Assembly (NCBI GenBank): GCA_964244835.1
Contig: CAXTKJ010000069.1
Location: 1-24,000 of the forward strand
Origin: an uncultured Pyrinomonadaceae bacterium
GTDB lineage: Bacteria > Acidobacteriota > Blastocatellia > Pyrinomonadales > Pyrinomonadaceae
Length of the DNA stretch: 24,000 bases
Direction of reading: 5' to 3'
The notes under the pieces are model-generated. The model saw only the letters and a list, made by a program, of their open reading frames with translations. It was not told where the DNA came from and ran no database searches. This document shows positions 5,255 to 13,785 of this stretch, piece after piece (within the stretch, counting starts at the first letter, position 1; every line of letters starts with the position of its first letter). The translations under genes and the position numbers were made by a program.

Positions 5255-7816
5255 TTAATTCCCAATTTTCAAAAGATGCGTTTGAATCTGCTGTTGATTG
5301 ATATTGGCGTTTAATTGCCCGCCGGAAACATTGGCGTTTTCGATAAAAGTTTCGATATGCGTCAGTTTTTCCGCCGACAAAATCGTTCGTCCCAAACCTA
5401 AATTATAATTAAGCGATGAGTTCGATTGATTCCAAACGCGGGCGACGATGCCGCGTGAAATGCCGTCTTCCGCCGGTTTTAAAGTCCACAACAAAACATT
5501 CGGATTCGAGATTTGAACGAACGAATAATTATTCGACGGAAACGGGCGATTTTGCGTTCCCGTTCCTTCAATCAATCCGGCGATGAGCGGATTTTGATGC
5601 GCGAGCGCAAACTTCATCGCATCGGTTTGATTGAAACCAGCGTGAGTTTGCAGAGCAAATTTTTGTCTGAAAAAACTGTCGCCGCCCTGATTCGGAATTC
5701 CTAAATTCGCGCCGTCGGTTTGTCCGCCGCTCAAAACATTTATTTGCGGTGTCGTGGTGTCCAAAGCGTTACTGCCGCTTTCGCCAAGTTTCATAAAATA
5801 TGCGTCGGCATTGGAAACGGTTACGCCGAAATTGTTCGCCGCGCCGTCGCTCAAATCGGCGAAATGATTCATCGTCAGCCAATCGTAACGGGCGTTCTTC
5901 GGCGAATAATGTCCGCCGTTCGATAATAATTTGCCCCGAATGACCGCGCCGACTTCTTCGTGCCAAACGTCGGGCGAATTGATGTCGAACGAAAAACTCC
6001 AGGTTTTGACATCGCCGAAATTCTGCGTGATTTGATTTTCGATTTCGATGCGATTCGAGTTGCGATAAAAAGTTACCCGCGTCGTGTGTTCGAGCGGACT
6101 CGACGAAATTGCGCGAAGCGTTACGCTCGCCGCGCCCGCGTTTTCAATGGTCATTCTGCCAGTTCGATTGCCGCCCAGATCATTTAAAACTCTGCCGTTA
6201 ATAGTCCGCACGGTTTCGCGGTTGTTTCGAGTTTTATCAATTAAACTCACAATCGCGCCGTCGTTTGCCAACGTCAGCCGATAAAATTCGTTTTCAATCG
6301 TATTCCCGTTCACCGTCGCCGCGTTTGAAAAACTCGCGCCCGCGCCGCTGCGGATTTCATAAACCTTATAACCGATTGACGGCACATTTTCCGCCGCGAC
6401 GCGCAGGATTTTTTTATTTCCGAAACGTAAGATTTGCGAAGGCACTTCCGCGCCGGTTGAAACGTCAACGACGCGAACCCGGCGCATTTGGCGAAACGGC
6501 AAATCAGCGTAATCGGTGCGCGTCCAACTCAGCGGATTAAAGACGAAAAATCTTTGCTCGCCGCTGTCGCGGGAGATTTGTTTCCCAAGTTCGATTCGCG
6601 CGTCGTCGTGCAGTTTATCAACATAAGATGTGATTTCACCTTCGACTTTGCGGCTCCAATTCGCTCTTGCGTTACGCGAAATCGCACCGTCCGCCGTCCA
6701 GGTATGCTCGAAATAAAGTCCGAAATTGAGCATTGCGCGGTCGCGGTCGGCAATACGCGAATTCATAAAAGCCGGATTGTTTAATGAAACCAAAGTCGCC
6801 ATCGAATCCGCACTTCGCAGTTTTTCGTTGGCGCGTTTGACCCGCGCCGAAACTTCCGCCAGAGACGCGACGAGCGTGTCCCATTCGTTACCGTAAGCGG
6901 CGGCGTGAGTTTCCAATCCGCCGCCGTAATTGGCTTCAAAATCGCGGAAAAAATCTTCTTCGTTCGAGACGATAATGCGCCGGTTGGCATTGGAATTTTG
7001 ATTGGCAATCGTAACGAATTCGTCGCTCGTGTACTGTAGATCGTCCCAACCGCGCCCGAACGCGCCGATGATCGGATACGGATATTTCGCCTGAAACGTC
7101 GAATTGTTCTCGGCGAAAGTTATCGAACTAATCGGATTAAACGCTTCGGCATAACCGCCGTAACCCTGATTGGAGTCGAACAGCGAATGCCATTTCATCA
7201 AAACCCGACTGCCGTCACGTCCGCCGCAGTAATAAATTTCGCGGTCGCGGCTTTGCAGATTATTGACGTTCGACGCGCAGCCGCACACGCCTTTCCAACT
7301 GTATTTTGCGCCTGCACCCGCCCAAAGTGATGGCAAACCGTATGGAAAAGTTTGATTTTCCATCGCAATCGCCATCGGAAAACGCACGTTGTAGCGGCGT
7401 TCAATCAAACCCGGATAATACATTCCGCGCAGAACCGCTTCGGCGGGCGCACCGCCATTGACCAAAACCAAAGGGTTTAACGGAACACTCAGATGCCCGT
7501 CTCGAATGCGATTGATAAATCTATCAAACTGCGCGGCACTGCGATTCTTTTCAAACTCCCACATCCAAAGACTGCCGTCGCAGTTCCAGCGCATCTGCCG
7601 GTCGGACGGATTTCCCTGCGTCGCGTCCATTTTGTTCAGATAATAATCGAGCATCGTCAGAAACGACTGGCGGTAAGTCGCATCGTCCGCCGTCCAAAAA
7701 TAATCGGTATGATCGTCCGGCGCAATATAAAACCGCTTTTGCGCCGCAACCGTCTGCACGGAAACGACGAGCAGGGCGAGAATAACGATTCTCGAAAATA
7801 CATCCGACATTTTCAT
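5255..7816 (-). CDS. Secreted glycoside hydrolase family 38-like protein (alpha-mannosidase family)
   Basis: An 853-aa ORF with an N-terminal signal peptide (ILALLVVSVQTVAAQ). It has the FYIAPDDHTDYFW metal-site-like motif near the N-terminus and the overall size of GH38-type enzymes. Family assignment is by recollection of similar annotations and was not searched. Confidence 0.65.
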   Translation of the reverse strand: MKMSDVFSRIVILALLVVSVQTVAAQKRFYIAPDDHTDYFWTADDATYRQSFLTMLDYYLNKMDATQGNPSDRQMRWNCDGSLWMWEFEKNRSAAQFDRFINRIRDGHLSVPLNPLVLVNGGAPAEAVLRGMYYPGLIERRYNVRFPMAIAMENQTFPYGLPSLWAGAGAKYSWKGVCGCASNVNNLQSRDREIYYCGGRDGSRVLMKWHSLFDSNQGYGGYAEAFNPISSITFAENNSTFQAKYPYPIIGAFGRGWDDLQYTSDEFVTIANQNSNANRRIIVSNEEDFFRDFEANYGGGLETHAAAYGNEWDTLVASLAEVSARVKRANEKLRSADSMATLVSLNNPAFMNSRIADRDRAMLNFGLYFEHTWTADGAISRNARANWSRKVEGEITSYVDKLHDDARIELGKQISRDSGEQRFFVFNPLSWTRTDYADLPFRQMRRVRVVDVSTGAEVPSQILRFGNKKILRVAAENVPSIGYKVYEIRSGAGASFSNAATVNGNTIENEFYRLTLANDGAIVSLIDKTRNNRETVRTINGRVLNDLGGNRTGRMTIENAGAASVTLRAISSSPLEHTTRVTFYRNSNRIEIENQITQNFGDVKTWSFSFDINSPDVWHEEVGAVIRGKLLSNGGHYSPKNARYDWLTMNHFADLSDGAANNFGVTVSNADAYFMKLGESGSNALDTTTPQINVLSGGQTDGANLGIPNQGGDSFFRQKFALQTHAGFNQTDAMKFALAHQNPLIAGLIEGTGTQNRPFPSNNYSFVQISNPNVLLWTLKPAEDGISRGIVARVWNQSNSSLNYNLGLGRTILSAEKLTHIETFIENANVSGGQLNANINQQQIQTHLLKIGN

Positions 7817-7852: not shown

Positions 7853-7881
7853 AAAAAAGCGAATGTTTTTCCAACATTCGC
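7853..7881 (-). terminator. Rho-independent terminator ending the radical SAM operon
   Basis: On the minus strand, gcgaatgtt-ggaaa-aacattcgc is followed by a six-T run (complement of aaaaaa at 7853-7858). It lies 26 nt after the stop of the 67-aa ORF. Confidence 0.75.
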
Positions 7882-7906
7882 TCTCCTCTAATAAATTTAA
7901 CGCCGT

Positions 7907-8110
7907 CTATTTCGCGTCGTTTTCGTCCTTGCCGTCGTCGTGAATCAGATTGCCGCTTTCATCAATCGCGTCCTTATCTGCGTGTTCCTGCGGCGTTTTC
8001 CTTCCCGGCTGCGGCGCGTGTTCGGGATGTTCTCCCGTTAATTCCAACTCCGAAACCTTTTCCTCGTCCATCACCTTTTTGTCGTGGGCGATGTTTCTTT
8101 CATCCGGCAT
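7907..8110 (-). CDS. Small, highly acidic, probably disordered protein (67 aa), last gene of the radical SAM operon
   Basis: It has an ATG start preceded by taagggagaaaataaaatt (an SD-like GGGAG). It sits 30 nt downstream of the 303-aa radical SAM gene and is followed by the terminator. The sequence is rich in D/E/K/H, with no Cys, Trp, Tyr or Phe. No homology was recognised. Confidence 0.55.
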   Translation of the reverse strand: MPDERNIAHDKKVMDEEKVSELELTGEHPEHAPQPGRKTPQEHADKDAIDESGNLIHDDGKDENDAK

Positions 8111-8140
8111 AATTTTATTTTCTCCCTTATTCGTCTGTAT

Positions 8141-9052
8141 TTAGTTTCTTCCGACGGCTTTTTTCAAAGCCTCTTTCATCACCAACTTCGGGCTGTTCAT
8201 CGTCGCCATATAAAACGGCACGACGCAGCCGCATTTGTCGCAATCGGCGTTGTCGCCCATCATACATTTGCCTTTCGGTTTGCCGTCCGCGCCGAGCGTG
8301 AACGCTTTTTCCTTGAACAAACAATTGTCCGTGACGCTTTTTGAGTTTTTCGATTTCATCAAATCGAGCGTCGAATCGAGCATATTGATTTTGCCCGGGT
8401 ATTTCTTTTTCAGCGCGAAGATTTTATCAATCATCGCATCGCGCTCGTCCCAATCGAGCCATAACGATTCATCCAATTTATTGACCGGCGTGAAGAAATC
8501 AAAGATTATTCCGCCGCTCGCCATGTCTTTCCATTCCTCGACCAAATCTTCGATGCAGTCTTTCGTCAGACTCGTGATGACGCACGAAATCTGGATTTTT
8601 AAGTTTGAATGCCGTTTGATGTTCTCTTTGATTTTGTTGTAAATTCCCGGCGCACGCATTTTCTCGAACGCTTCTTCCGTGCCGTCAATCGAAATCACCC
8701 ACGTGACATCCGTCCAATCGGGCAGTTCCATCGTGCCGTTCGTGACAATCGTGTTGTATTTGAAATATTTGCGTCCGGCATCAATCAAAGGTTTACGAAC
8801 GAGCGGTTCGCCGCCGACCCAGGTGCAAAGCAGCATCGGATCGCCCGCCGCTTTCATCGTTTCAAACTGCGCGACCCATTCTTCGACGGTTTGCTCGCGT
8901 TCGTTGTGTTCTTCGGCGAAAAAATAGCAATGCTCGCAACGCAGATTGCAGCGTTTCGTTGCGTCAATCGAACCGACGGCGTTGTTCGGCATTCCGAAAG
9001 CCAACAGTTTAGCGAGACCGCCGAGATTTTTGAGCGTTTTGGTAAGTGCCAT
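8141..9052 (-). CDS. Radical SAM protein with a C-terminal auxiliary Cys cluster (HpnH-like / twitch-SPASM-like layout)
   Basis: Has a CX3CX2C motif (KRCNLRCEHC) and a GGE SAM-binding motif (WVGGEPLV). The C-terminus reads C-x22-C-x7-C-x2-C-x-C (NCLF...GKCMMGDNADCDKCGCVVPFY). Confidence 0.85.
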   Translation of the reverse strand: MALTKTLKNLGGLAKLLAFGMPNNAVGSIDATKRCNLRCEHCYFFAEEHNEREQTVEEWVAQFETMKAAGDPMLLCTWVGGEPLVRKPLIDAGRKYFKYNTIVTNGTMELPDWTDVTWVISIDGTEEAFEKMRAPGIYNKIKENIKRHSNLKIQISCVITSLTKDCIEDLVEEWKDMASGGIIFDFFTPVNKLDESLWLDWDERDAMIDKIFALKKKYPGKINMLDSTLDLMKSKNSKSVTDNCLFKEKAFTLGADGKPKGKCMMGDNADCDKCGCVVPFYMATMNSPKLVMKEALKKAVGRN

Positions 9053-9074
9053 TTTTTACTCGCTTACAAAGCAA

Positions 9075-9098
9075 AAGCCTGCTCAATCGAACAGGCTT
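9075..9098 (-). terminator. Weak hairpin between the two radical SAM genes, a possible attenuator
   Basis: A 7-bp stem aagcctg / caggctt with a 10-nt loop. On the minus strand it is followed by tttgctttg. It lies in the 54-nt intergenic gap. Confidence 0.25.
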
Positions 9099-9106
9099 CG
9101 CAAATA

Positions 9107-11068
9107 TTATAATTTCACCGTTTCAAATTCTTCTTCCTCGACCAGATACGGCGAAACGGTCGGCTGATCCAAATCTTCCTGCAAAACCTTGGCGATAACC
9201 GGCAGACTCAATGAGCGAGTTTTCGAGATATTCGGCACGGCTTTGCCTTTCGCGTAAACGTCGTGTCGCCCGTTGTCTTTATACCATTCGGCTAAACTCG
9301 CGGTTTTGTTCATCTCTTCGACGATCTGCCGCCAGCCGACTCCGGTATTATAGGCGCAGAATGAAATTTCGCCTTCCTGAGTGCCATAAGGAATGACGCA
9401 CATTTCCGTGCGGCGGAAATCGTAGTTGAACAAATCCTGAAACCACATTCCTTCGACGCACAAGACGCGCCACATATCATCGGTATCGTTTTTCGGCTGC
9501 GCTTTCATTCGATCATTTCTATCCGAATTAGAATCAGCCGACGACGGTTTGAAAAGATTCAGAATCTGCGAAACGGGAAAGCCGTCGGGCGCGTTCGACG
9601 CGTCGTAGTTTCGCATAATCGCCATTCCGAGTTGCGCCATCGTCAACTTTTTACCGCGAGCTGTGTCGGTAATCGTCGCCACGTCTCTCGTAAACTGCTC
9701 GTAATTGAAAAAGTCGAACAAAGATGTCATCGCGCCCGTATTTTTATTAACGACAATCAGCGTGAAAATTCCGCAGTTCGGATGACAATTACACGACGAC
9801 CAGCCCCACGGAGCATCCGCGCCTTGCAGCATATCCATCACGCTCGTGAAAGCCGAATACGACGAAAGCGGAAACCAATCGCGCAAAGGCTGCAAAGTTC
9901 CGTCGAGTTGATCTTTCAAATCGTGCGTCATTCCCGCCAAAGTGTATCTTTGCTGAATGCGGTCTTTGTCGGAAACGTCTTCGTCGCGCCCGGTGAACGA
10001 AACGGGTTGAAACGCAATCGTCTGAACTTTATCAATATTCTGCGCGGCGAATTTTACGATGTCGCCGATTGCGTCGTTGTTGACAGTGTTGACAATAGTC
10101 GTTACCAAAGTAACTTTAATGCCGACGCTGGCGAGATTTTCAATCGCTTTTAGTTTCACGTCGAACAAATTGCCGACTCCGCGATGCTTGTTTTTTTCTT
10201 CCGAGGTTCCGTCAAATTGCAGATAAACACCGTGCTGTCCGGCTTCTTTCGCCGCTTTGCAGAACTCGATGTCTTCGGCGTAGCGAATGCCATTCGTCGC
10301 GGCTAAAATGCGATAAAATCCGATCTTTTTCGCGTATGCGACCGATTCTAAAAAGTGCGGCGCAATCGTTGGTTCGCCGCCCGAAAATAAAATGATTATT
10401 TGGCGGCGCGGCTTGAAGGAAATCGCGTTATCTAAAATCTGTTTCGTGTCTTCAAACGTCGGTTCGTGAACGTAGCCGACCTGATTTGCGTCCATAAAAC
10501 ACGGGTTGCACATCATATTGCAGCGGTTCGTCAAATCAACCGTCAAAACCGCGCCGCGCCCAAATTTAATGTCCGAAGTTCCGTGATGATGAACGTGCTT
10601 GTCTTCCGCCGCCTTGAAATCGCGCCCGTAAAACAACGATTCGATGCGTTCCAAAAACTTCGCGTCGGTCGCCATCACGTCAACGAATTCGCCGTGCGTC
10701 GGACAGGTTTTCTTCATCAGAACCTGCCCGTTTTCCTCGACAATCTGCGCCTTAATCTCGCCCGGATGCGAGTTCATCAAAATCTCCAGCGGAATCGTTT
10801 TATCAATCACGCCGTTACGCACATTCTTCACGCACGTCGGACACAGCGAATCGGTTTCACGCGGGAAACCCAACGGCGGCGCGGTGCGCTCATAACTTTT
10901 CAAAAGCGGTTCCGCCGCCCAATTCGGCGTAATAGATTCGCCTTCGGGCAAAGTTTTATTCACCGCCTGAAACGCCTTCCAACCAATATCGGCAAGTTTC
11001 GATGCCGCCTTCGAGCCTGTTTTCCCTTTGCCTTTCCCTTCGCCGCGTCTGAAATTATCACTGAACAT
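9107..11068 (-). CDS. Large radical SAM enzyme with an N-terminal zinc-ribbon/rubredoxin-like module; tetraether lipid synthase (Tes / GDGT-MAS, MJ0619 class-D rSAM) family-like
   Basis: The N-terminal module reads CPTCVKNV...IKAQIVEENGQVLMKKTCPTHGEF. The radical SAM core has LTNRCNMMCNPCF (CX3CX2C) and FSGGEPT. Later Cys motifs are WSSCNCHPNCG and WFQDLFNYDFRRTEMCVIPYGTQEGEISFCAYN. The radical SAM call is firm; the subfamily call rests on my recollection of the MJ0619-type architecture. Confidence 0.8.
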   Translation of the reverse strand: MFSDNFRRGEGKGKGKTGSKAASKLADIGWKAFQAVNKTLPEGESITPNWAAEPLLKSYERTAPPLGFPRETDSLCPTCVKNVRNGVIDKTIPLEILMNSHPGEIKAQIVEENGQVLMKKTCPTHGEFVDVMATDAKFLERIESLFYGRDFKAAEDKHVHHHGTSDIKFGRGAVLTVDLTNRCNMMCNPCFMDANQVGYVHEPTFEDTKQILDNAISFKPRRQIIILFSGGEPTIAPHFLESVAYAKKIGFYRILAATNGIRYAEDIEFCKAAKEAGQHGVYLQFDGTSEEKNKHRGVGNLFDVKLKAIENLASVGIKVTLVTTIVNTVNNDAIGDIVKFAAQNIDKVQTIAFQPVSFTGRDEDVSDKDRIQQRYTLAGMTHDLKDQLDGTLQPLRDWFPLSSYSAFTSVMDMLQGADAPWGWSSCNCHPNCGIFTLIVVNKNTGAMTSLFDFFNYEQFTRDVATITDTARGKKLTMAQLGMAIMRNYDASNAPDGFPVSQILNLFKPSSADSNSDRNDRMKAQPKNDTDDMWRVLCVEGMWFQDLFNYDFRRTEMCVIPYGTQEGEISFCAYNTGVGWRQIVEEMNKTASLAEWYKDNGRHDVYAKGKAVPNISKTRSLSLPVIAKVLQEDLDQPTVSPYLVEEEEFETVKL

Positions 11069-11184
11069 AATGTTTTTTATTTAATAAGATGCTGATTAAA
11101 ATTTTGGTTTTTGATGCAGTAAATCAACTTCAAGGCTAACAAATTTAAGTTTTATTGTCCAAAATTTATTTTAAAAGCAATCTT

Positions 11185-11853
11185 TTACTTTCCTTTCACT
11201 GGTAATTCGATTTTGAGTTTTTTTGGATTGTATTCATAGGCTCTTGTTTCTTGGCTATAAATCTTTTCCAAATTCAGCAGTCCTTTTTTTGACTCGAAAC
11301 GCAAAATAAGTCCATTAACATCTAGCCAAAATTTAGATTGTGAATAAGCTATCTTTCCTTTATCGCTTTCATCTGAATCTGAAATTTTAAATGTGTAGAA
11401 GTTTGTAAACAATTCAGCCGATTGATTGTTTAATTTTACGTCTTCAACCGTAAATTTTCTTTCTATTACGCCTGACAAGCCGGATATACCGGTACCTTCG
11501 CACCATTTATTCGACTGCTTCCACTCGCCATCGTTTTCTTTGCAATAATAGTTTTCGCCGATTTGAAAATATTCTTTTCTGTTTGTTCGGTCGGTGAGTT
11601 TTTTAACTTCCAAATAATGTCTTTTATCAGGCACAAGATATTCGTCGGTAATTCTCGTTGTGCTGTTTAGTTTTCCGTCCTCAAAATATTCTTTTTGACT
11701 TGTAATCCGCCGTGAAATCTCAGACATTGGTTTATAAGCATCTCGAATTGGCTGCCAAAACTTTTCTTCAGGAACTTCCTTTGTTTGACTGAACGCATTT
11801 ATCGTTGCGCCAAAACAAAAAATCACAAGTAATATGCAATTCTTAACTTTCAT
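11185..11853 (-). CDS. Hypothetical secreted protein, AT-rich gene
   Basis: Lies in ORF 11185..11877. I prefer the ATG at 11853 (MKVKNCILLVIFCFGATINAFSQ, a signal peptide). This start overlaps the stop of the upstream DUF433-like reading frame (atgaaagttaa). No homology was recognised. Confidence 0.6.
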   Translation of the reverse strand: MKVKNCILLVIFCFGATINAFSQTKEVPEEKFWQPIRDAYKPMSEISRRITSQKEYFEDGKLNSTTRITDEYLVPDKRHYLEVKKLTDRTNRKEYFQIGENYYCKENDGEWKQSNKWCEGTGISGLSGVIERKFTVEDVKLNNQSAELFTNFYTFKISDSDESDKGKIAYSQSKFWLDVNGLILRFESKKGLLNLEKIYSQETRAYEYNPKKLKIELPVKGK

Positions 11854-12094
11854 AATTTTCAGATTCTCCAACTTCACTCAATTTTTTTTCTCCAATTTTT
11901 CTTTCTAAATCATAAGCAAAAACCGCCTGCAGATCTTCCCGCGTCAAACGTGGATAATTTTCCAAAAGCTGTTCCTGCGTCCAACCGCTTGCTAGCCTTT
12001 CGACAATAAATTCAACCGACAGCCGCGTTCCTTTAATCGTCGGTTTGCCGAGCAGGATATTTTAATCTGAGACGATTTTATTTTGCCAATTCAT
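11843..12094 (-). pseudogene. DUF433-family (antitoxin-like HTH) gene with an in-frame TAA at codon 11
   Basis: The minus strand reads ATG(12094) MNWQNKIVSD-TAA(12064-12062)-NILLGKPTIKGTRLSVEFIVERLASGWTQEQLLENYPRLTREDLQAVFAY..., ending at the stop at 11843-11845. The GKPxIxGTR and YPxLTxED motifs are DUF433 hallmarks. The stop falls where the family usually has DP. Confidence 0.6.
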
Positions 12095-12221
12095 ACTTCT
12101 ATTTCTCTACCACGATGATTTTAATTGAAGGCGGCGCGGATAACAATAATTTTGGCGGAAAACGGCGAATTTCGATTTTAAGCGTAATGATTGCCGCCGA
12201 TTGGCGGTATCAGGAACGCTT

Positions 12222-12431
12222 TGCAAATTAAGTTTTCCGTTCTGCAAATTAAATTTGCACATCTACGAATTGAATTTGCAAACGTGCAAATTAAATTCGC
12301 AAAGTTACATATTAAATTTGCATGCTTACAAATTAAATTTGCAGAGCTACATATTGAATTTGCACGTTTACAAATTAAATTTGCACGCTTACAAATTCAA
12401 TTTGTCGGCAAATAAATTGAATTTGCACGTC
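12222..12431. repeat. Ten head-to-tail 21-bp units, each a 17-bp palindrome T(G/A)CAAATT-A-AATTTGCA plus a 4-nt variable linker
   Basis: Unit starts are at 12222, 12243, 12264, 12285, 12306, 12327, 12348, 12369, 12390 and 12411, an exact 21-bp phase. The right half-site AATTTGCA is exact in 7 of 10 units. The first and last two units are the most degenerate. The array ends 71 nt upstream of the ATG at 12503. Confidence 0.95.
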
Positions 12432-12502
12432 GTGTAAAAGTGATTATTCGCGGGAAAAATCATCAACTAAATTAAAACCTAAACTTTCAGGAGACATAAA
12501 TT

Positions 12503-12871
12503 ATGGCTAAATCAAGACGTTTAACGAAAAAAGTGCTGCTCGAAGACATTGAAACTTACGCATCTTTGCAGGCAGTCGCGGGTTATAAACCGAGCAACGG
12601 CGACTACACGCTGGCTAATGTTACCGCCTCGCATACCAAAATGAACGCGAGCCAAACCGACGAAGCACAAAAACAGGACGCGCTCGACGCAGCGAAGGAC
12701 ATTTCGACCAACGACGAACGGGCGTTTCACAATATGATTTTGGGAGCGAAAACGCAGGTCAAGGCGCAGTTCGGCGAAAATTCCAACGAATTTCAAGCTC
12801 TCGGAATGAAGAAAAAAGAAGAATACAAAAGCGGCAGACGCTCGGCGAAACCGGCGGACGGCTCAAAGTAA
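12503..12871 (+). CDS. Hypothetical 122-aa protein, predicted mostly helical with a basic N- and C-terminus
   Basis: An ATG preceded by caggagacataaatt (AGGAG 8 nt upstream). The codon pattern looks coding, and a hairpin terminator follows. No family was recognised. Confidence 0.7.
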   Translation: MAKSRRLTKKVLLEDIETYASLQAVAGYKPSNGDYTLANVTASHTKMNASQTDEAQKQDALDAAKDISTNDERAFHNMILGAKTQVKAQFGENSNEFQALGMKKKEEYKSGRRSAKPADGSK

Positions 12872-12891
12872 TTTATAGCTTAAAATTGAGA

Positions 12892-12932
12892 GGCGGTGAA
12901 AACGAATTGTTCATACATTTCATTTTCACCGC
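12892..12932. terminator. Hairpin terminator between the convergent 122-aa and 243-aa genes
   Basis: ggcggtgaaaa (12892-12902) pairs with ttttcaccgc (12923-12932), followed by ttttataatttt. The loop is about 20 nt. Confidence 0.6.
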
Positions 12933-12951
12933 TTTTATAATTTTGAATTCC

Positions 12952-13683
12952 TTAATTTAGATTTTTCTGCCTTTCGTATTCCTCTTCGATTCTCGCAGAT
13001 TCTTTAGCGCAAGTCGTGATGTATTTACTGCCCGGCATTGAGTCATCAACGAATAAACACTGACTTTCTTCGTATTTTCCACGATTAAATTTATAGGTTG
13101 TTTGATAAGAAGAAGCGCAAGACCCGTGATTTCTGACGAAAATGTTTTTGTAACCGCTGGTCAAATTCTTTTTAACCAATAAAATTTCGCCGCCTGTATC
13201 TAAAAGTTTTTTGTAGCTGTTGCCGGATTTTTTGTAAATCCACATCTGGCAATTTCCAGTTGCACCGCAAAGAAAAAAATTTGCGCCGCGCACAACGAAT
13301 TCATTTATTCCGTCGCCGTTTAAATCAACAGTTTGATTGATATACAAAATGTCCTGACAATCGGAATCATCGCTGAATTCCAGATGGTTTTTAGCATCTT
13401 CATCAAAATCTTTCTGCTTTCTTAAATCATTCAGAACCGCCGACAAAATTTTGTTATTGCAGGTAAAGGCAGATTTCTTTTTGACGGCAGGCTGATTTTC
13501 AATCGGAAATTGCAAACTATTTCTTCTTATGTCTTCCCGAAAATTGCCGAAACTTCTGGTTTTAAATACTTCTTGAGTGTTCGGAAAAATCTTTTCAGTT
13601 TGCCGGTTAAATCTTTCCGCAATAACAGAACCGATTCCGAAAGACGACAATCCGATCAATAAATAGAAAAACCAACGTCGCAT
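12952..13683 (-). CDS. Hypothetical membrane-anchored protein with an FG-GAP/VCBS-like DxNGDG motif, AT-rich gene
   Basis: A 243-aa ORF with an N-terminal hydrophobic anchor (WFFYLLIGLSSFGIGSVIA). It carries VDLNGDGINEFVV and CGATGNCQMWIY motifs. Confidence 0.65.
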   Translation of the reverse strand: MRRWFFYLLIGLSSFGIGSVIAERFNRQTEKIFPNTQEVFKTRSFGNFREDIRRNSLQFPIENQPAVKKKSAFTCNNKILSAVLNDLRKQKDFDEDAKNHLEFSDDSDCQDILYINQTVDLNGDGINEFVVRGANFFLCGATGNCQMWIYKKSGNSYKKLLDTGGEILLVKKNLTSGYKNIFVRNHGSCASSYQTTYKFNRGKYEESQCLFVDDSMPGSKYITTCAKESARIEEEYERQKNLN

Positions 13684-13785
13684 AATTGTTTCTCCGAAAC
13701 TTCAACTGAATCTCTGAATAAGATTGTCTTTGACGCTTCGATGGAGTTCAACGTGGATTTCCACAGTGGTTTAGTGTTCAGCGAA

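Follow-up and report, generated by a model that had tools for sequence, protein, structure and literature searches.

A Tes-like radical SAM gene, an optional second radical SAM gene and a small acidic protein gene at a Pyrinomonadaceae locus

What is encoded by a bacterial locus in which a homologue of archaeal Tes/GDGT-MAS is followed by a second radical SAM gene and a gene for an acidic mini-protein, and do the three belong together? The window considered here, a stretch of 24,000 nt of the Pyrinomonadaceae contig CAXTKJ010000069.1, contains three ORFs in the same direction on the minus strand: gene 1 (653 aa, 9107..11068), gene 2 (303 aa, 8141..9052) and gene 3 (67 aa, 7907..8110), separated by 54 and 30 nt, as originally predicted. 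Judged from sequence comparison, all three are real genes under purifying selection, because each has homologues and dN/dS is low (0.04–0.09 for gene 1, 0.10–0.13 for gene 2 and 0.04–0.22 for gene 3). Matches at 86–97% identity all come from Pyrinomonadaceae, and the host is a soil bacterium of Acidobacteria subdivision 4.

The signals that had been predicted at both ends of the unit are found. The 116 nt upstream of gene 1 (11069..11184, minus strand), the presumed promoter region, are 78% A+T (GC 0.216); a scan of them detected neither a sigma-70-like consensus site nor a terminator-like site. At the other end, a hairpin at 7887..7853 (minus strand; −18.4 kcal/mol, z −4.49 against shuffles) followed by TTTTTT closes the unit ahead of a GH38-like gene (5255–7816), and similar hairpins lie 3′ of the mini-protein gene in related loci L006, L008 and L085. 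The claim of one transcription unit becomes uncertain because the 54-nt gap harbors a second terminator-like structure that the original prediction did not mention: an 11-bp stem at 9099..9074 (minus strand) followed by TTTTGCTTTG, flagged in the terminator scan and with a folding energy of −20.9 kcal/mol (z −4.25), a stability that none of 200 shuffled sequences reached. This spacer hairpin could be a leaky terminator or an attenuator. Its distance to the gene 2 start is about 20 nt, too short to accommodate a promoter of gene 2's own. L085 lacks the hairpin, and its gene 2 starts about 6–9 nt past the gene 1 stop.

By its sequence, the 653-aa protein is a homologue of Tes/GDGT-MAS (MJ0619) along its full length, as had been proposed. 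It matches Pfam PF23545 and PF04055 (the Pfam domain name still carries the old HMPTM assignment) and covers positions 2–482 of the 486 in the NCBIfam Tes profile NF045702, nearly end to end, although with 323 bits it stays below the cutoff of 450. PDB 7TOL is matched over the full length at E 1.9e-69 and about 28–30% identity; in a separate comparison 7TOL and 7TOM are the top matches (E 4e-24), with MoaA as the runner-up (5e-7). All the cysteine motifs quoted in the original prediction for the 653-aa and 303-aa proteins are present. In gene 1 they comprise a rubredoxin-like site (C76-x2-C79...C122-x2-H125), the radical-SAM cluster motif (C183-x3-C187-x2-C190), and C426-N-C428-HPN-C432-G and M541-WFQD...C557...C571, from which C432, C557 and C571 with the labile Met M541 form the catalytic C-terminal cluster. 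Judged against the ligand list of Lloyd 2022 (PMC9433317), three of the four Tes metal sites, i.e., the rubredoxin-like, radical-SAM and C-terminal catalytic sites, are invariant, and the C-terminal ligands with the labile Met are kept in 77/77 bacterial relatives. The N-terminal auxiliary [4Fe-4S] site was found neither in gene 1 nor in any of the 77 bacterial relatives examined. In a neighbour-joining tree, gene 1 falls in a clade (clade A) of Pyrinomonadaceae and some other Acidobacteriota sequences, and the Tes-like family is widespread across Acidobacteriota orders.

The gene 2 product has PF04055 as its sole Pfam match, with CX3CX2C at residues 35–42, and a C-terminal auxiliary motif, C263-x7-C271-x2-C274-x-C276, all four cysteines of which are invariant in the alignment together with C76 and C244. 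No NCBIfam family came near its cutoff; the AhbD HMM, whose cutoff is 500 bits, gives 33. Some sources name gene 2 an Fe-coproporphyrin synthase. An AlphaFold model (pLDDT 87.3) has a single N-terminal helix ahead of the radical-SAM core and one twitch-type auxiliary cluster, and its top PDB fold match by Foldseek is SkfB (E 1.8e-13, TM 0.67, about 21% identity). The best structural and HMM matches, namely SkfB, YydG/EpeE, PapB and SuiB, are peptide-modifying twitch/SPASM enzymes.

How tightly gene 2 is tied to the Tes-like gene depends on where one looks. In Blastocatellia it occurs essentially only just 3′ of a Tes-like gene and co-directional with it, in 13/13 informative partner contigs (loci at least 60% identical to gene 2) and in four GTDB species loci. 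The link persists across differing flanks (lpxA/lpxD/lpxB versus the context in the window) and intervening insertions. Furthermore, in L104 a 45%-identical family member follows an 87%-identical Tes-like gene after about 22 nt, so that two gene 2 lineages with a mutual identity of only 45% share the same slot. Gene 2 is nevertheless optional: it is present at only 4 of 24 informative related species loci, and the closest relatives (L005, L006 and L171) lack it despite 96–99% identical Tes-like proteins. In blastn against L005, L006 and L008, the Tes-like DNA aligns to 9117 and the mini-protein DNA resumes at 8125, delimiting an indel segment (8126..9116) of hairpin plus gene 2, in place of which L006 has just 16 unaligned nt. 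All 43 bacterial Tes-like loci of greater divergence lack gene 2 as well as the N-terminal cluster; in other lineages the radical SAM gene paired with the Tes-like gene is of the B12-binding or SPASM type. Outside Blastocatellia, most gene 2 homologues have neither Tes-like nor lipid genes nearby. A 49%-identical homologue in Desulfuromonadaceae is located among genes for PagL, an LpxL-like acyltransferase, ACP, FabD, a thioesterase and several radical SAM enzymes, a hint of a lipid context for gene 2 relatives. Gene 2 has been repeatedly gained, lost or moved, and the predicted tight coupling applies to its position within Blastocatellia but not to its presence.

The mini-protein behaves differently. 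Gene 3 (minus strand) encodes an acidic, Cys-free protein that matched no Pfam or NCBIfam family; its ORF is intact in six loci, and its 256 homologues of 64–76 aa, all of Pyrinomonadaceae type, conserve PEHAPQPG+KTPQ and AIDESGNL+H. From its composition it is probably disordered. In L005, L006, L008, L085 and L167–L173 the gene comes immediately after the Tes-like gene, and all of these except L085 have it without gene 2; conversely, L003, L011, L017, L025, L030, L165 and L166 have gene 2 without the mini-protein gene. Both occur together in only three loci, in two different orders. Hence the idea of one three-gene module does not hold: in one Pyrinomonadaceae sub-lineage the mini-protein gene is consistently found next to the Tes-like gene on its 3′ side, with gene 2 present or absent. 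As gene 2 is optional and the mini-protein follows the Tes-like gene regardless, the locus amounts to a pair of Tes-like and mini-protein genes between which gene 2 has been inserted as an accessory. Gene 3 may encode an auxiliary factor for the Tes-like enzyme.

The best explanation, with a probability of roughly 0.5, is that gene 1 makes a membrane-spanning lipid and that gene 2 performs an optional modification of its tails. MJ0619 was reassigned to lipid coupling from structure and activity (PMC9433317), and a role in brGDGT synthesis has been suggested for bacterial Tes homologues (PMC8941075; PMC10087280). Cultures of subdivision 4 are rich in iso-diabolic acid and its glycerol ether (PMC13274423), and no homologue of mss was detected in Acidobacteria (PMC13159169). 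By the Tes mechanism, a 5′-deoxyadenosyl radical would take a hydrogen from the terminal methyl of a lipid tail, the resulting carbon radical would be captured by a sulfide of the C-terminal cluster, and removal of a hydrogen from another tail would then lead to the C–C bond; with iso-branched C15 chains of bacterial glycerolipids, the products would be membrane-spanning lipids of the iso-diabolic-acid type. Gene 2 would then be an accessory tailoring enzyme that carries out another radical step, possibly a cross-link, ring closure or dehydrogenation, on the lipid tails of the Tes-like enzyme's substrate or product, by analogy with Gms and Grs acting after Tes in archaea. Transcription would start in the AT-rich region, the hairpin after gene 1 would reduce read-through to genes 2 and 3, and that after gene 3 would terminate it. 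Points counted against this explanation are the missing metal site, the sub-cutoff Tes score, the absences of gene 2 and its shared slot, the spacer hairpin, the peptide-enzyme matches, the survey of lipid producers cited below, the mostly lipid-free surroundings of partner homologues outside Blastocatellia, and the fact that the literature searched holds no demonstrated activity for any bacterial Tes homologue.

Alternatively, the adjacency of gene 2 may reflect inherited gene order and an insertion-site preference, the enzyme acting on an unrelated substrate such as a cofactor or another metabolite. Part of the adjacency could be explained in this way because the linked cases all come from one class. 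Unrelated genes, coding for a Uma2 endonuclease, an antitoxin, a permease or a secreted protein, are also found in the position 3′ of the Tes-like gene. The 20 of 24 loci without gene 2, the unrelated contexts of distant homologues, the hairpin with its T-run and the AhbD-like annotations point the same way. Inherited order alone, however, fits poorly with an invariable 3′ co-directional placement despite different flanks and inserts, with two divergent lineages in one slot, with so low an AhbD score and with the lack of space for an own promoter, and we regard this explanation as unlikely, at somewhat over one chance in five.

Doubt may also fall on gene 1, which might catalyze another radical SAM reaction, e.g., pterin methylation, the first role ascribed to MJ0619, or a reaction on lipid A acyl chains. 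The score under the equivalog cutoff, the absent metal site and the HMPTM-derived domain name would agree with this, as would the location of clade-A genes beside lpxA/lpxD/lpxB in 25 loci and a survey with strict criteria by Sahonero-Canavesi et al., in which only 3 of 14 iso-diabolic-acid-producing acidobacteria had Tes homologues (PMC13159169). The reassignment of MJ0619, the invariance of the catalytic ligands and labile Met, and the wide distribution of the family in Acidobacteriota orders devoid of mss argue to the contrary, making such a reaction improbable. Slightly less probable still is a RiPP-type peptide maturase acting on the 67-aa protein or another small peptide; peptide modification had been raised as an alternative in the original prediction and found no support. 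The best matches of gene 2 do modify peptides and a small ORF adjoins it in the window, but either gene is found without the other, the mini-protein is devoid of Cys and of any leader/core layout that could be recognised, and gene 2, with one helix before the motif at residue 35, therefore has no peptide-recognition domain. Least probable is a maturase or activating enzyme installing a needed modification or cofactor in the Tes-like protein. Small radical SAM genes beside a large enzyme are often activases and a helper is conceivable since bacterial Tes-like proteins lack the N-terminal cluster, yet near-identical Tes-like proteins and the 43 distant loci do without gene 2.

Returning to gene 1 as a lipid-coupling enzyme and gene 2 as its optional partner, the known systems place the locus as follows. 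Archaeal Tes/GDGT-MAS (MJ0619; 7TOL, 7TOM) and gene 1 share the rubredoxin-like C-x2-C...C-x2-H, the CX3CX2C and the three C-terminal Cys with the labile Met. In gene 1, however, H-x-H-G-[TS]-S...GRG stands in place of the N-terminal auxiliary ligands CX3CX2C...H, a 22-aa insert lies within the rubredoxin domain, bacterial extensions of about 70 aa (N-terminal) and about 60 aa (C-terminal) are added, and the expected substrate would be an iso-branched fatty-acyl lipid rather than a phytanyl diether. The acidobacterial Tes homologues suggested to make brGDGTs or iso-diabolic acid (Zeng 2022, PMC8941075; Halamka 2022, PMC10087280) belong to the same family and carry the same hypothesis, with putative activities throughout; gene 1 lies within the acidobacterial radiation, its clade A standing apart, at about 50% identity, from the Bryobacterales/Acidobacteriaceae clade (order and family of Solibacter and Edaphobacter). 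Mss of Thermotoga and Thermoanaerobacter (Sahonero-Canavesi 2022, PMC13159169) is likewise a radical SAM enzyme with the same proposed product class, forming tail-to-tail C–C bonds between bacterial fatty-acyl chains, but it represents a different family and is reported only from anaerobes. SkfB-type twitch-domain enzymes resemble gene 2 in combining a radical-SAM core with a C-terminal Cys-rich auxiliary-cluster domain, whereas gene 2 has neither their N-terminal peptide-recognition domain nor an associated precursor peptide.

The closest precedent is the gms–tes cluster (Gms, GMGT synthase; Garcia et al. 2024, PMC11214058; Li 2024, PMC11186832). In Acidobacteria and Planctomycetes, gms genes of the SPASM/twitch radical SAM class cluster with tes (PMC11214058), so the view in the original prediction that defined partners are lacking no longer applies. 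Both arrangements join a non-B12 SPASM/twitch-class radical SAM gene to a tes homologue, and gene 2 is best compared with the second C–C bond-forming or tailoring step proposed for a membrane-spanning lipid. Gene 2 was considered as Gms itself and rejected, failing the defining features: Gms has at least 400 aa, an N-terminal COG4001 lipid-binding domain of roughly 100 aa and a complete SPASM domain carrying two auxiliary clusters, and strongly resembles AhbD (E 7e-79), in contrast to the 303 aa, one N-terminal helix, one twitch-type Cys cluster and 33-bit AhbD score of gene 2. The locus is thus a variant of described gene clusters, not a new kind of system, and its pairing of a Tes-like gene with gene 2 is a useful lead toward lipid-modifying enzymes.

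Three co-directional genes on the minus strand make up the locus: a 653-aa protein resembling the archaeal tetraether synthase Tes/GDGT-MAS (gene 1, 9107–11068), a 303-aa radical SAM protein (gene 2, 8141–9052) and a 67-aa acidic mini-protein (gene 3, 7907–8110). The spacers are 54 nt between genes 1 and 2 and 30 nt between genes 2 and 3, the 116 nt located 5′ of gene 1 are 78% A+T, and a terminator-like hairpin with 15 pairs followed by TTTTTT lies 3′ of gene 3 (7887..7853, minus strand; −18.4 kcal/mol, z −4.5). ORFs, gaps and final terminator are real, as the original prediction described them, and the cysteine motifs that it quoted for genes 1 and 2 are all found in the sequences; but it missed another hairpin within the 54-nt gap (9099..9074, minus strand), an 11-bp stem followed by TTTTGCTTTG, which is matched in a terminator scan and folds at −20.9 kcal/mol (z −4.25; 0/200 shuffled sequences fold equally well). 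No promoter space is left between this hairpin and the start codon of gene 2. Because of the hairpin and its T-run, the proposed single transcription unit for the three genes is plausible only if the hairpin is leaky. All three ORFs are true genes under constraint, with pairwise Nei–Gojobori dN/dS values against relatives of 0.04–0.09 for gene 1, 0.10–0.13 for gene 2 and 0.04–0.22 for gene 3. Rfam, tRNA and promoter scans gave nothing of use at the locus.

Upstream of gene 1, a low-GC stretch (window 11000–13700; 35–41% versus ~50% elsewhere) contains ORFs without family match and, at 12245–12404, a tandem array in which a partly palindromic 21-nt unit, CAAATTAAATTTGCACACTTA, is repeated in 7.6 copies; this stretch may be DNA acquired recently. 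Downstream, an 853-aa protein (window 5255–7816) gives a weak match, to C-terminal domains of glycoside hydrolase family 38 (GH38) only. Among the comparison loci from related or other genomes and metagenomes (L numbers, with coordinates within each locus), the GH38-like gene is present in L171–L173 and L166 and missing from L006 and L008; like gene 2, it is patchy among close relatives.

Gene 1 carries the HMPTM zinc-ribbon domain and Radical_SAM of Pfam, and positions 2–482 of the 486 in the NCBIfam Tes profile NF045702 are aligned to it with 323.3 bits, under the equivalog cutoff of 450 bits; TrsS follows at 209 bits. The archaeal enzyme itself (PDB 7TOL) is matched at E 1.9e-69, query residues 105–597 against chain residues 36–513. 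A Foldseek search with a predicted model also places 7TOL/7TOM first (E 4e-24; next protein 5e-7), a fold match that offers weak structural evidence because the AlphaFold model, built from an alignment of relatives at least 85% identical only, is poor (pLDDT 47.7); the case is carried by the sequence. To map the metal sites, 77 bacterial and 8 archaeal-like sequences were aligned and read against the ligand list for GDGT-MAS, including its rubredoxin-like motif (Lloyd et al., 2022; PMC9433317). The rubredoxin-like mononuclear Fe site (C-x2-C…C-x2-H; C76/C79/C122/H125) is invariant in both groups bar one or two gapped rows, and the radical-SAM CX3CX2C (C183/C187/C190) and the C-terminal catalytic-cluster residues C432, C557, C571 and M541 are invariant as well, M541 aligning to the labile Met439 of MJ0619 (SEQRES residue 459, offset 20). 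Judged by invariance rather than by structure, C432/C557/C571 would be the ligands of the C-terminal [4Fe-4S] cluster. The N-terminal auxiliary [4Fe-4S] motif (CX3CX2C plus His) is kept in the 8 archaeal-like sequences and absent in gene 1 and all 77 bacterial relatives, which come from several phyla; in place of its cysteines stands a conserved His-rich stretch, H-x-H-G-[TS]-S…GRG (gene 1 residues 140–182; bacterial loci L003–L084). Gene 1 falls short of two features of Tes membership, this metal site and the curated score, and most probably works like Tes. The Tes-like call of the original prediction was right, and it is already in the literature.

The closest matches to gene 1 (86–97% identical) are found in metagenome-assembled genomes of Pyrinomonadaceae (Blastocatellia, subdivision 4), and the nearest locus is L005, with 99% amino-acid and ~90% DNA identity. 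A HMMER search with gene 1 of 1.84 billion representative proteins gives 482 clusters at E ≤1e-30. In a neighbour-joining tree, acidobacterial Tes-like sequences form two clades: clade A, sister to sequences from Gemmatimonadota and Latescibacterota, includes the window, Pyrinomonadaceae at 78–99% identity and other Acidobacteriota at 62–70%, and clade B consists of Bryobacterales, Acidobacteriaceae, Vicinamibacterales and a second Pyrinomonadaceae set at ~52% identity. This split is provisional, since the tree carries no support values. Bacterial Tes homologues were put forward as brGDGT synthases (Zeng et al., 2022; PMC8941075), and two Solibacter homologues were invoked by Halamka et al. 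(2022; PMC10087280). By strict criteria, Tes homologues occur in only 3/14 iso-diabolic-acid producers, and no mss is found in Acidobacteria (Sahonero-Canavesi et al., 2022; PMC13159169). Subdivision-4 cultures contain abundant iso-diabolic acid and its glycerol ether, with brGDGT not detected (PMC13274423). No bacterial Tes homologue with shown activity was found in the literature searched.

Gene 2 is assigned to the twitch/SPASM subclass of radical SAM enzymes by its layout, in which a C-terminal Cys-rich domain for an auxiliary cluster (C244, C263, C271, C274, C276) comes after the core. These five residues, together with C35/C39/C42 and C76, are invariant in an alignment reaching down to 46% identity. 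Pfam finds Radical_SAM alone, with no SPASM match, and no NCBIfam score comes near any cutoff, the best being the PTO1314 family at 50 bits against 306. The predicted model (pLDDT 87.3) consists of one N-terminal helix (residues 2–19), the core and the Cys-rich domain; the radical-SAM motif begins at residue 35, and no domain precedes the core. Among PDB folds, the twitch enzyme SkfB matches it most closely (E 1.8e-13, TM 0.67), then SuiB, MoaA and anSME. With 470 matches, against at least 8000 candidates for the Tes-like family, the gene 2 family is by far the smaller of the two.

The connection between genes 1 and 2 looks different from its two ends. When 80 GTDB species loci with 10-kb flanks were searched from the Tes-like gene, gene 2 was found downstream of it in 4/24 informative clade-A loci at ≥78% identity (L011, L017, L025, L030) and in 0/43 more distant loci, and it is absent in the loci of the closest relatives. 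Window 8126–9116, comprising the hairpin and gene 2, appears as an indel in DNA alignments with L005, L006 and L008, and in L006 the Tes-like stop is followed by the mini-protein start after 30 nt. Likewise, L171–L173 have the window's order of SDR, two small genes, Tes-like gene, mini-protein gene, GH38-like gene and PGI, but without gene 2. When metagenome loci and look-ups were searched from gene 2 (partner identity ≥60%), a Tes-like gene was located upstream on the same strand in 13/13 informative Blastocatellia loci, sometimes with another gene in between: a secreted 199-aa protein gene in L017, L025, L088, L093, L097 and L115, Uma2 in L165 and an antitoxin in L166. A short contig, L086, has a decayed 3′ Tes-like remnant followed by the mini-protein gene and then gene 2. 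A deep-branching member of the gene 2 family with intact Cys motifs (L104:904–1923), ~45% identical to all other lineages, lies ~22 nt 3′ of a Tes-like gene 87% identical to that of the window; two deep lineages of the 303-aa family thus share the same slot. Homologues of gene 2 in other phyla, at 39–49% identity, have no Tes-like neighbour. In the survey of gene order across genomes, the link from gene 2 to the Tes-like gene therefore holds strictly within Blastocatellia, but the three-gene order recurs only in L085 among the relatives examined, most of which have two of the three genes.

The slot that directly follows the Tes-like gene on its 3′ side is a hot spot for insertions. It is occupied by Uma2-family endonuclease or antitoxin genes in L005:4370–5020, L165:2814–3458, L166:6430–6648 and 8018–8662, and L167:5324–5968, by a decayed Uma2 remnant in L011:11990–12060, by an FtsX-like permease gene in L007, L010, L038 and L039, and by the secreted 199-aa protein gene in 14 loci.

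Gene 3 has no family assignment in Pfam or NCBIfam. Its 256 homologues, 64–76 aa in length and all of Pyrinomonadaceae type, share the motifs MPDE+D, PEHAPQPG+KTPQ and AIDESGNL+H and contain no cysteine. Gene 3, in every locus examined, comes next on the 3′ side of the Tes-like gene or is separated from it by an inserted Uma2 gene, whichever gene follows further downstream (Ada, amidohydrolase or GH38-like). Only three loci have both gene 2 and gene 3: the window, L085 and L086. Two gene orders are seen among them, the mini-protein gene preceding gene 2 in L086. It is the Tes-like gene, not gene 2, that gene 3 accompanies. The idea that genes 2 and 3 form an accessory module of the Tes-like enzyme is accordingly half right: gene 2 stands 3′ of a Tes-like gene in all informative Blastocatellia loci, but it is optional and gene 3 does not travel with it. 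The peptide-modification alternative, a RiPP precursor (gene 3) and its maturase (gene 2), is rejected because the two genes are independently distributed in most loci; moreover, with nothing N-terminal to its core, gene 2 has no peptide-recognition domain, and gene 3 is not credible as a peptide substrate. The name Fe-coproporphyrin synthase (AhbD) is likewise out for gene 2, the HMM giving 33 bits (E 4e-8) against a cutoff of 500.

Outside Blastocatellia, a 49%-identical homologue of gene 2 is contained in a Desulfuromonadaceae cluster (L001:5036–15620; L002:5719–16969) together with PagL, an LpxL/PIM-type acyltransferase, ACP, FabD, a thioesterase, a deacetylase, a GT2 glycosyltransferase, B12-binding radical SAM genes (at least four) and a SPASM enzyme of 459 aa that is extended at its N terminus. 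The cluster looks like a lipid or glycolipid pathway not yet characterised. As other distant homologues are not surrounded by such a cluster, it is only a hint of a lipid role for gene 2. A secreted or lipoprotein-like gene of ~175–200 aa lies directly 5′ of gene 2 homologues in three unrelated contexts, namely DUF4410 in Desulfuromonadaceae (L001:7298–7822), a gene with a 4-nt overlap (L102:7324–7908/L109:3563–4129) and the 199-aa protein of Pyrinomonadaceae (L026:2096–2695); no sequence similarity is detectable among these proteins.

Other lineages have other pairings. Tes-like genes are paired with B12-binding radical SAM genes in Bryobacterales, Gemmatimonadota and Latescibacterota (L069:3936–5501, L071:4034–5566, L082:11987–13504, L050:12052–13536, L057:6239–7726). 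Those of Bryobacterales overlap the Tes-like start by 11–16 nt, HpnR-like enzymes are the Gemmatimonadota pairing, and the L082 gene is HpnR-like (338 bits versus a cutoff of 650); these partners are candidate lipid methylases. In a clade-B Blastocatellia locus (L065:12271–13620), a 449-aa SPASM radical SAM gene follows the Tes-like gene after 222 nt; its product has a Gms-like architecture with an N-terminal extension of ~120 aa, and is unrelated to gene 2 beyond the radical-SAM core. The clade-A Tes-like gene also adjoins lipid A genes in 25 loci from many Blastocatellia and other Acidobacteriota genomes (for example, L003:345–5730, L025:3582–4376 and L030:6879–8048), with lpxA at a median of 267 nt upstream, mostly divergent (331 bits, above cutoff), and lpxD, lpxB (280 bits) and lptD also nearby. 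This context has been lost in the window itself.

In the best reading of the locus, the Tes-like and mini-protein genes form a core pair, and an optional twitch-type radical SAM gene has been placed inside it. The strict linkage from gene 2 to the Tes-like gene in Blastocatellia, its survival in different flanking contexts and the second deep lineage in the slot argue for a functional tie between the two, and the frequent absence of gene 2 argues that it is dispensable, a putative tailoring step rather than a subunit or maturase. More specifically, and with a chance of only about one in five, gene 2 may be a new lipid-tail tailoring enzyme, not an ortholog of Gms (GMGT synthase) or Grs, that acts on an iso-diabolic-acid-type membrane-spanning lipid made by the Tes-like enzyme, gene 3 being a lineage-specific helper of the latter. 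The tailoring reaction could, for example, be formation of the bridging C–C bond of “H-shaped” branched tetraethers, ring closure, or chain desaturation. A Tes-like core joined by a lineage-specific, putative radical tailoring enzyme would fit as the general pattern: a bacterial Tes-like gene tends to have a second radical SAM gene as its partner, from a family that varies by lineage, twitch-type here and B12-binding or SPASM elsewhere.

Temperature and pH proxies in wide use are built on branched tetraether and iso-diabolic-acid lipids from soil bacteria. To our knowledge, the enzymes that make and modify these lipids in Acidobacteria are still unproven. The locus supplies a concrete candidate Tes-like gene from subdivision-4 Acidobacteria, and gene 2, carried by some species and not by close relatives, sets up a natural contrast in which a lipid modification could be sought. 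If the proposed reading is true, the patchy gene 2 would mark the soil Pyrinomonadaceae that make a particular modified lipid of palaeoclimate proxies, and, should its function be confirmed, particular lipid variants could be traced to source organisms; otherwise, the locus would be a known gene type with variable neighbours.

Among known systems, archaeal Tes/GDGT-MAS shares with gene 1 the rubredoxin-like site, the radical-SAM cluster, the C-terminal cluster residues and the labile Met, but it has the N-terminal auxiliary cluster, one of its four metal sites, which the whole bacterial Tes-like family is without. The closest precedent for the locus is the gms–tes clusters of Acidobacteria and Planctomycetes, in which tes is accompanied by gms, a gene for a SPASM/twitch radical SAM enzyme with a proposed role in bridged bacterial lipids (Garcia et al., 2024; PMC11214058). 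Gms is 400 aa long or more, has an N-terminal COG4001 domain of ~100 aa and a complete SPASM domain with two auxiliary clusters, and is strongly similar to AhbD, whereas gene 2 has 303 aa, a single N-terminal helix, five conserved C-terminal Cys and a poor AhbD score. On this architecture a Gms identity for gene 2 is out, the two being set apart by the criteria of Garcia et al. (2024) and not by alignment to Tg-Gms (WP_062369926.1). Both are alike in being clustered with tes in bacterial genomes, and the present locus is a variant of an already described kind of cluster and a moderate lead for lipid biochemistry and for the source organisms of the proxies.
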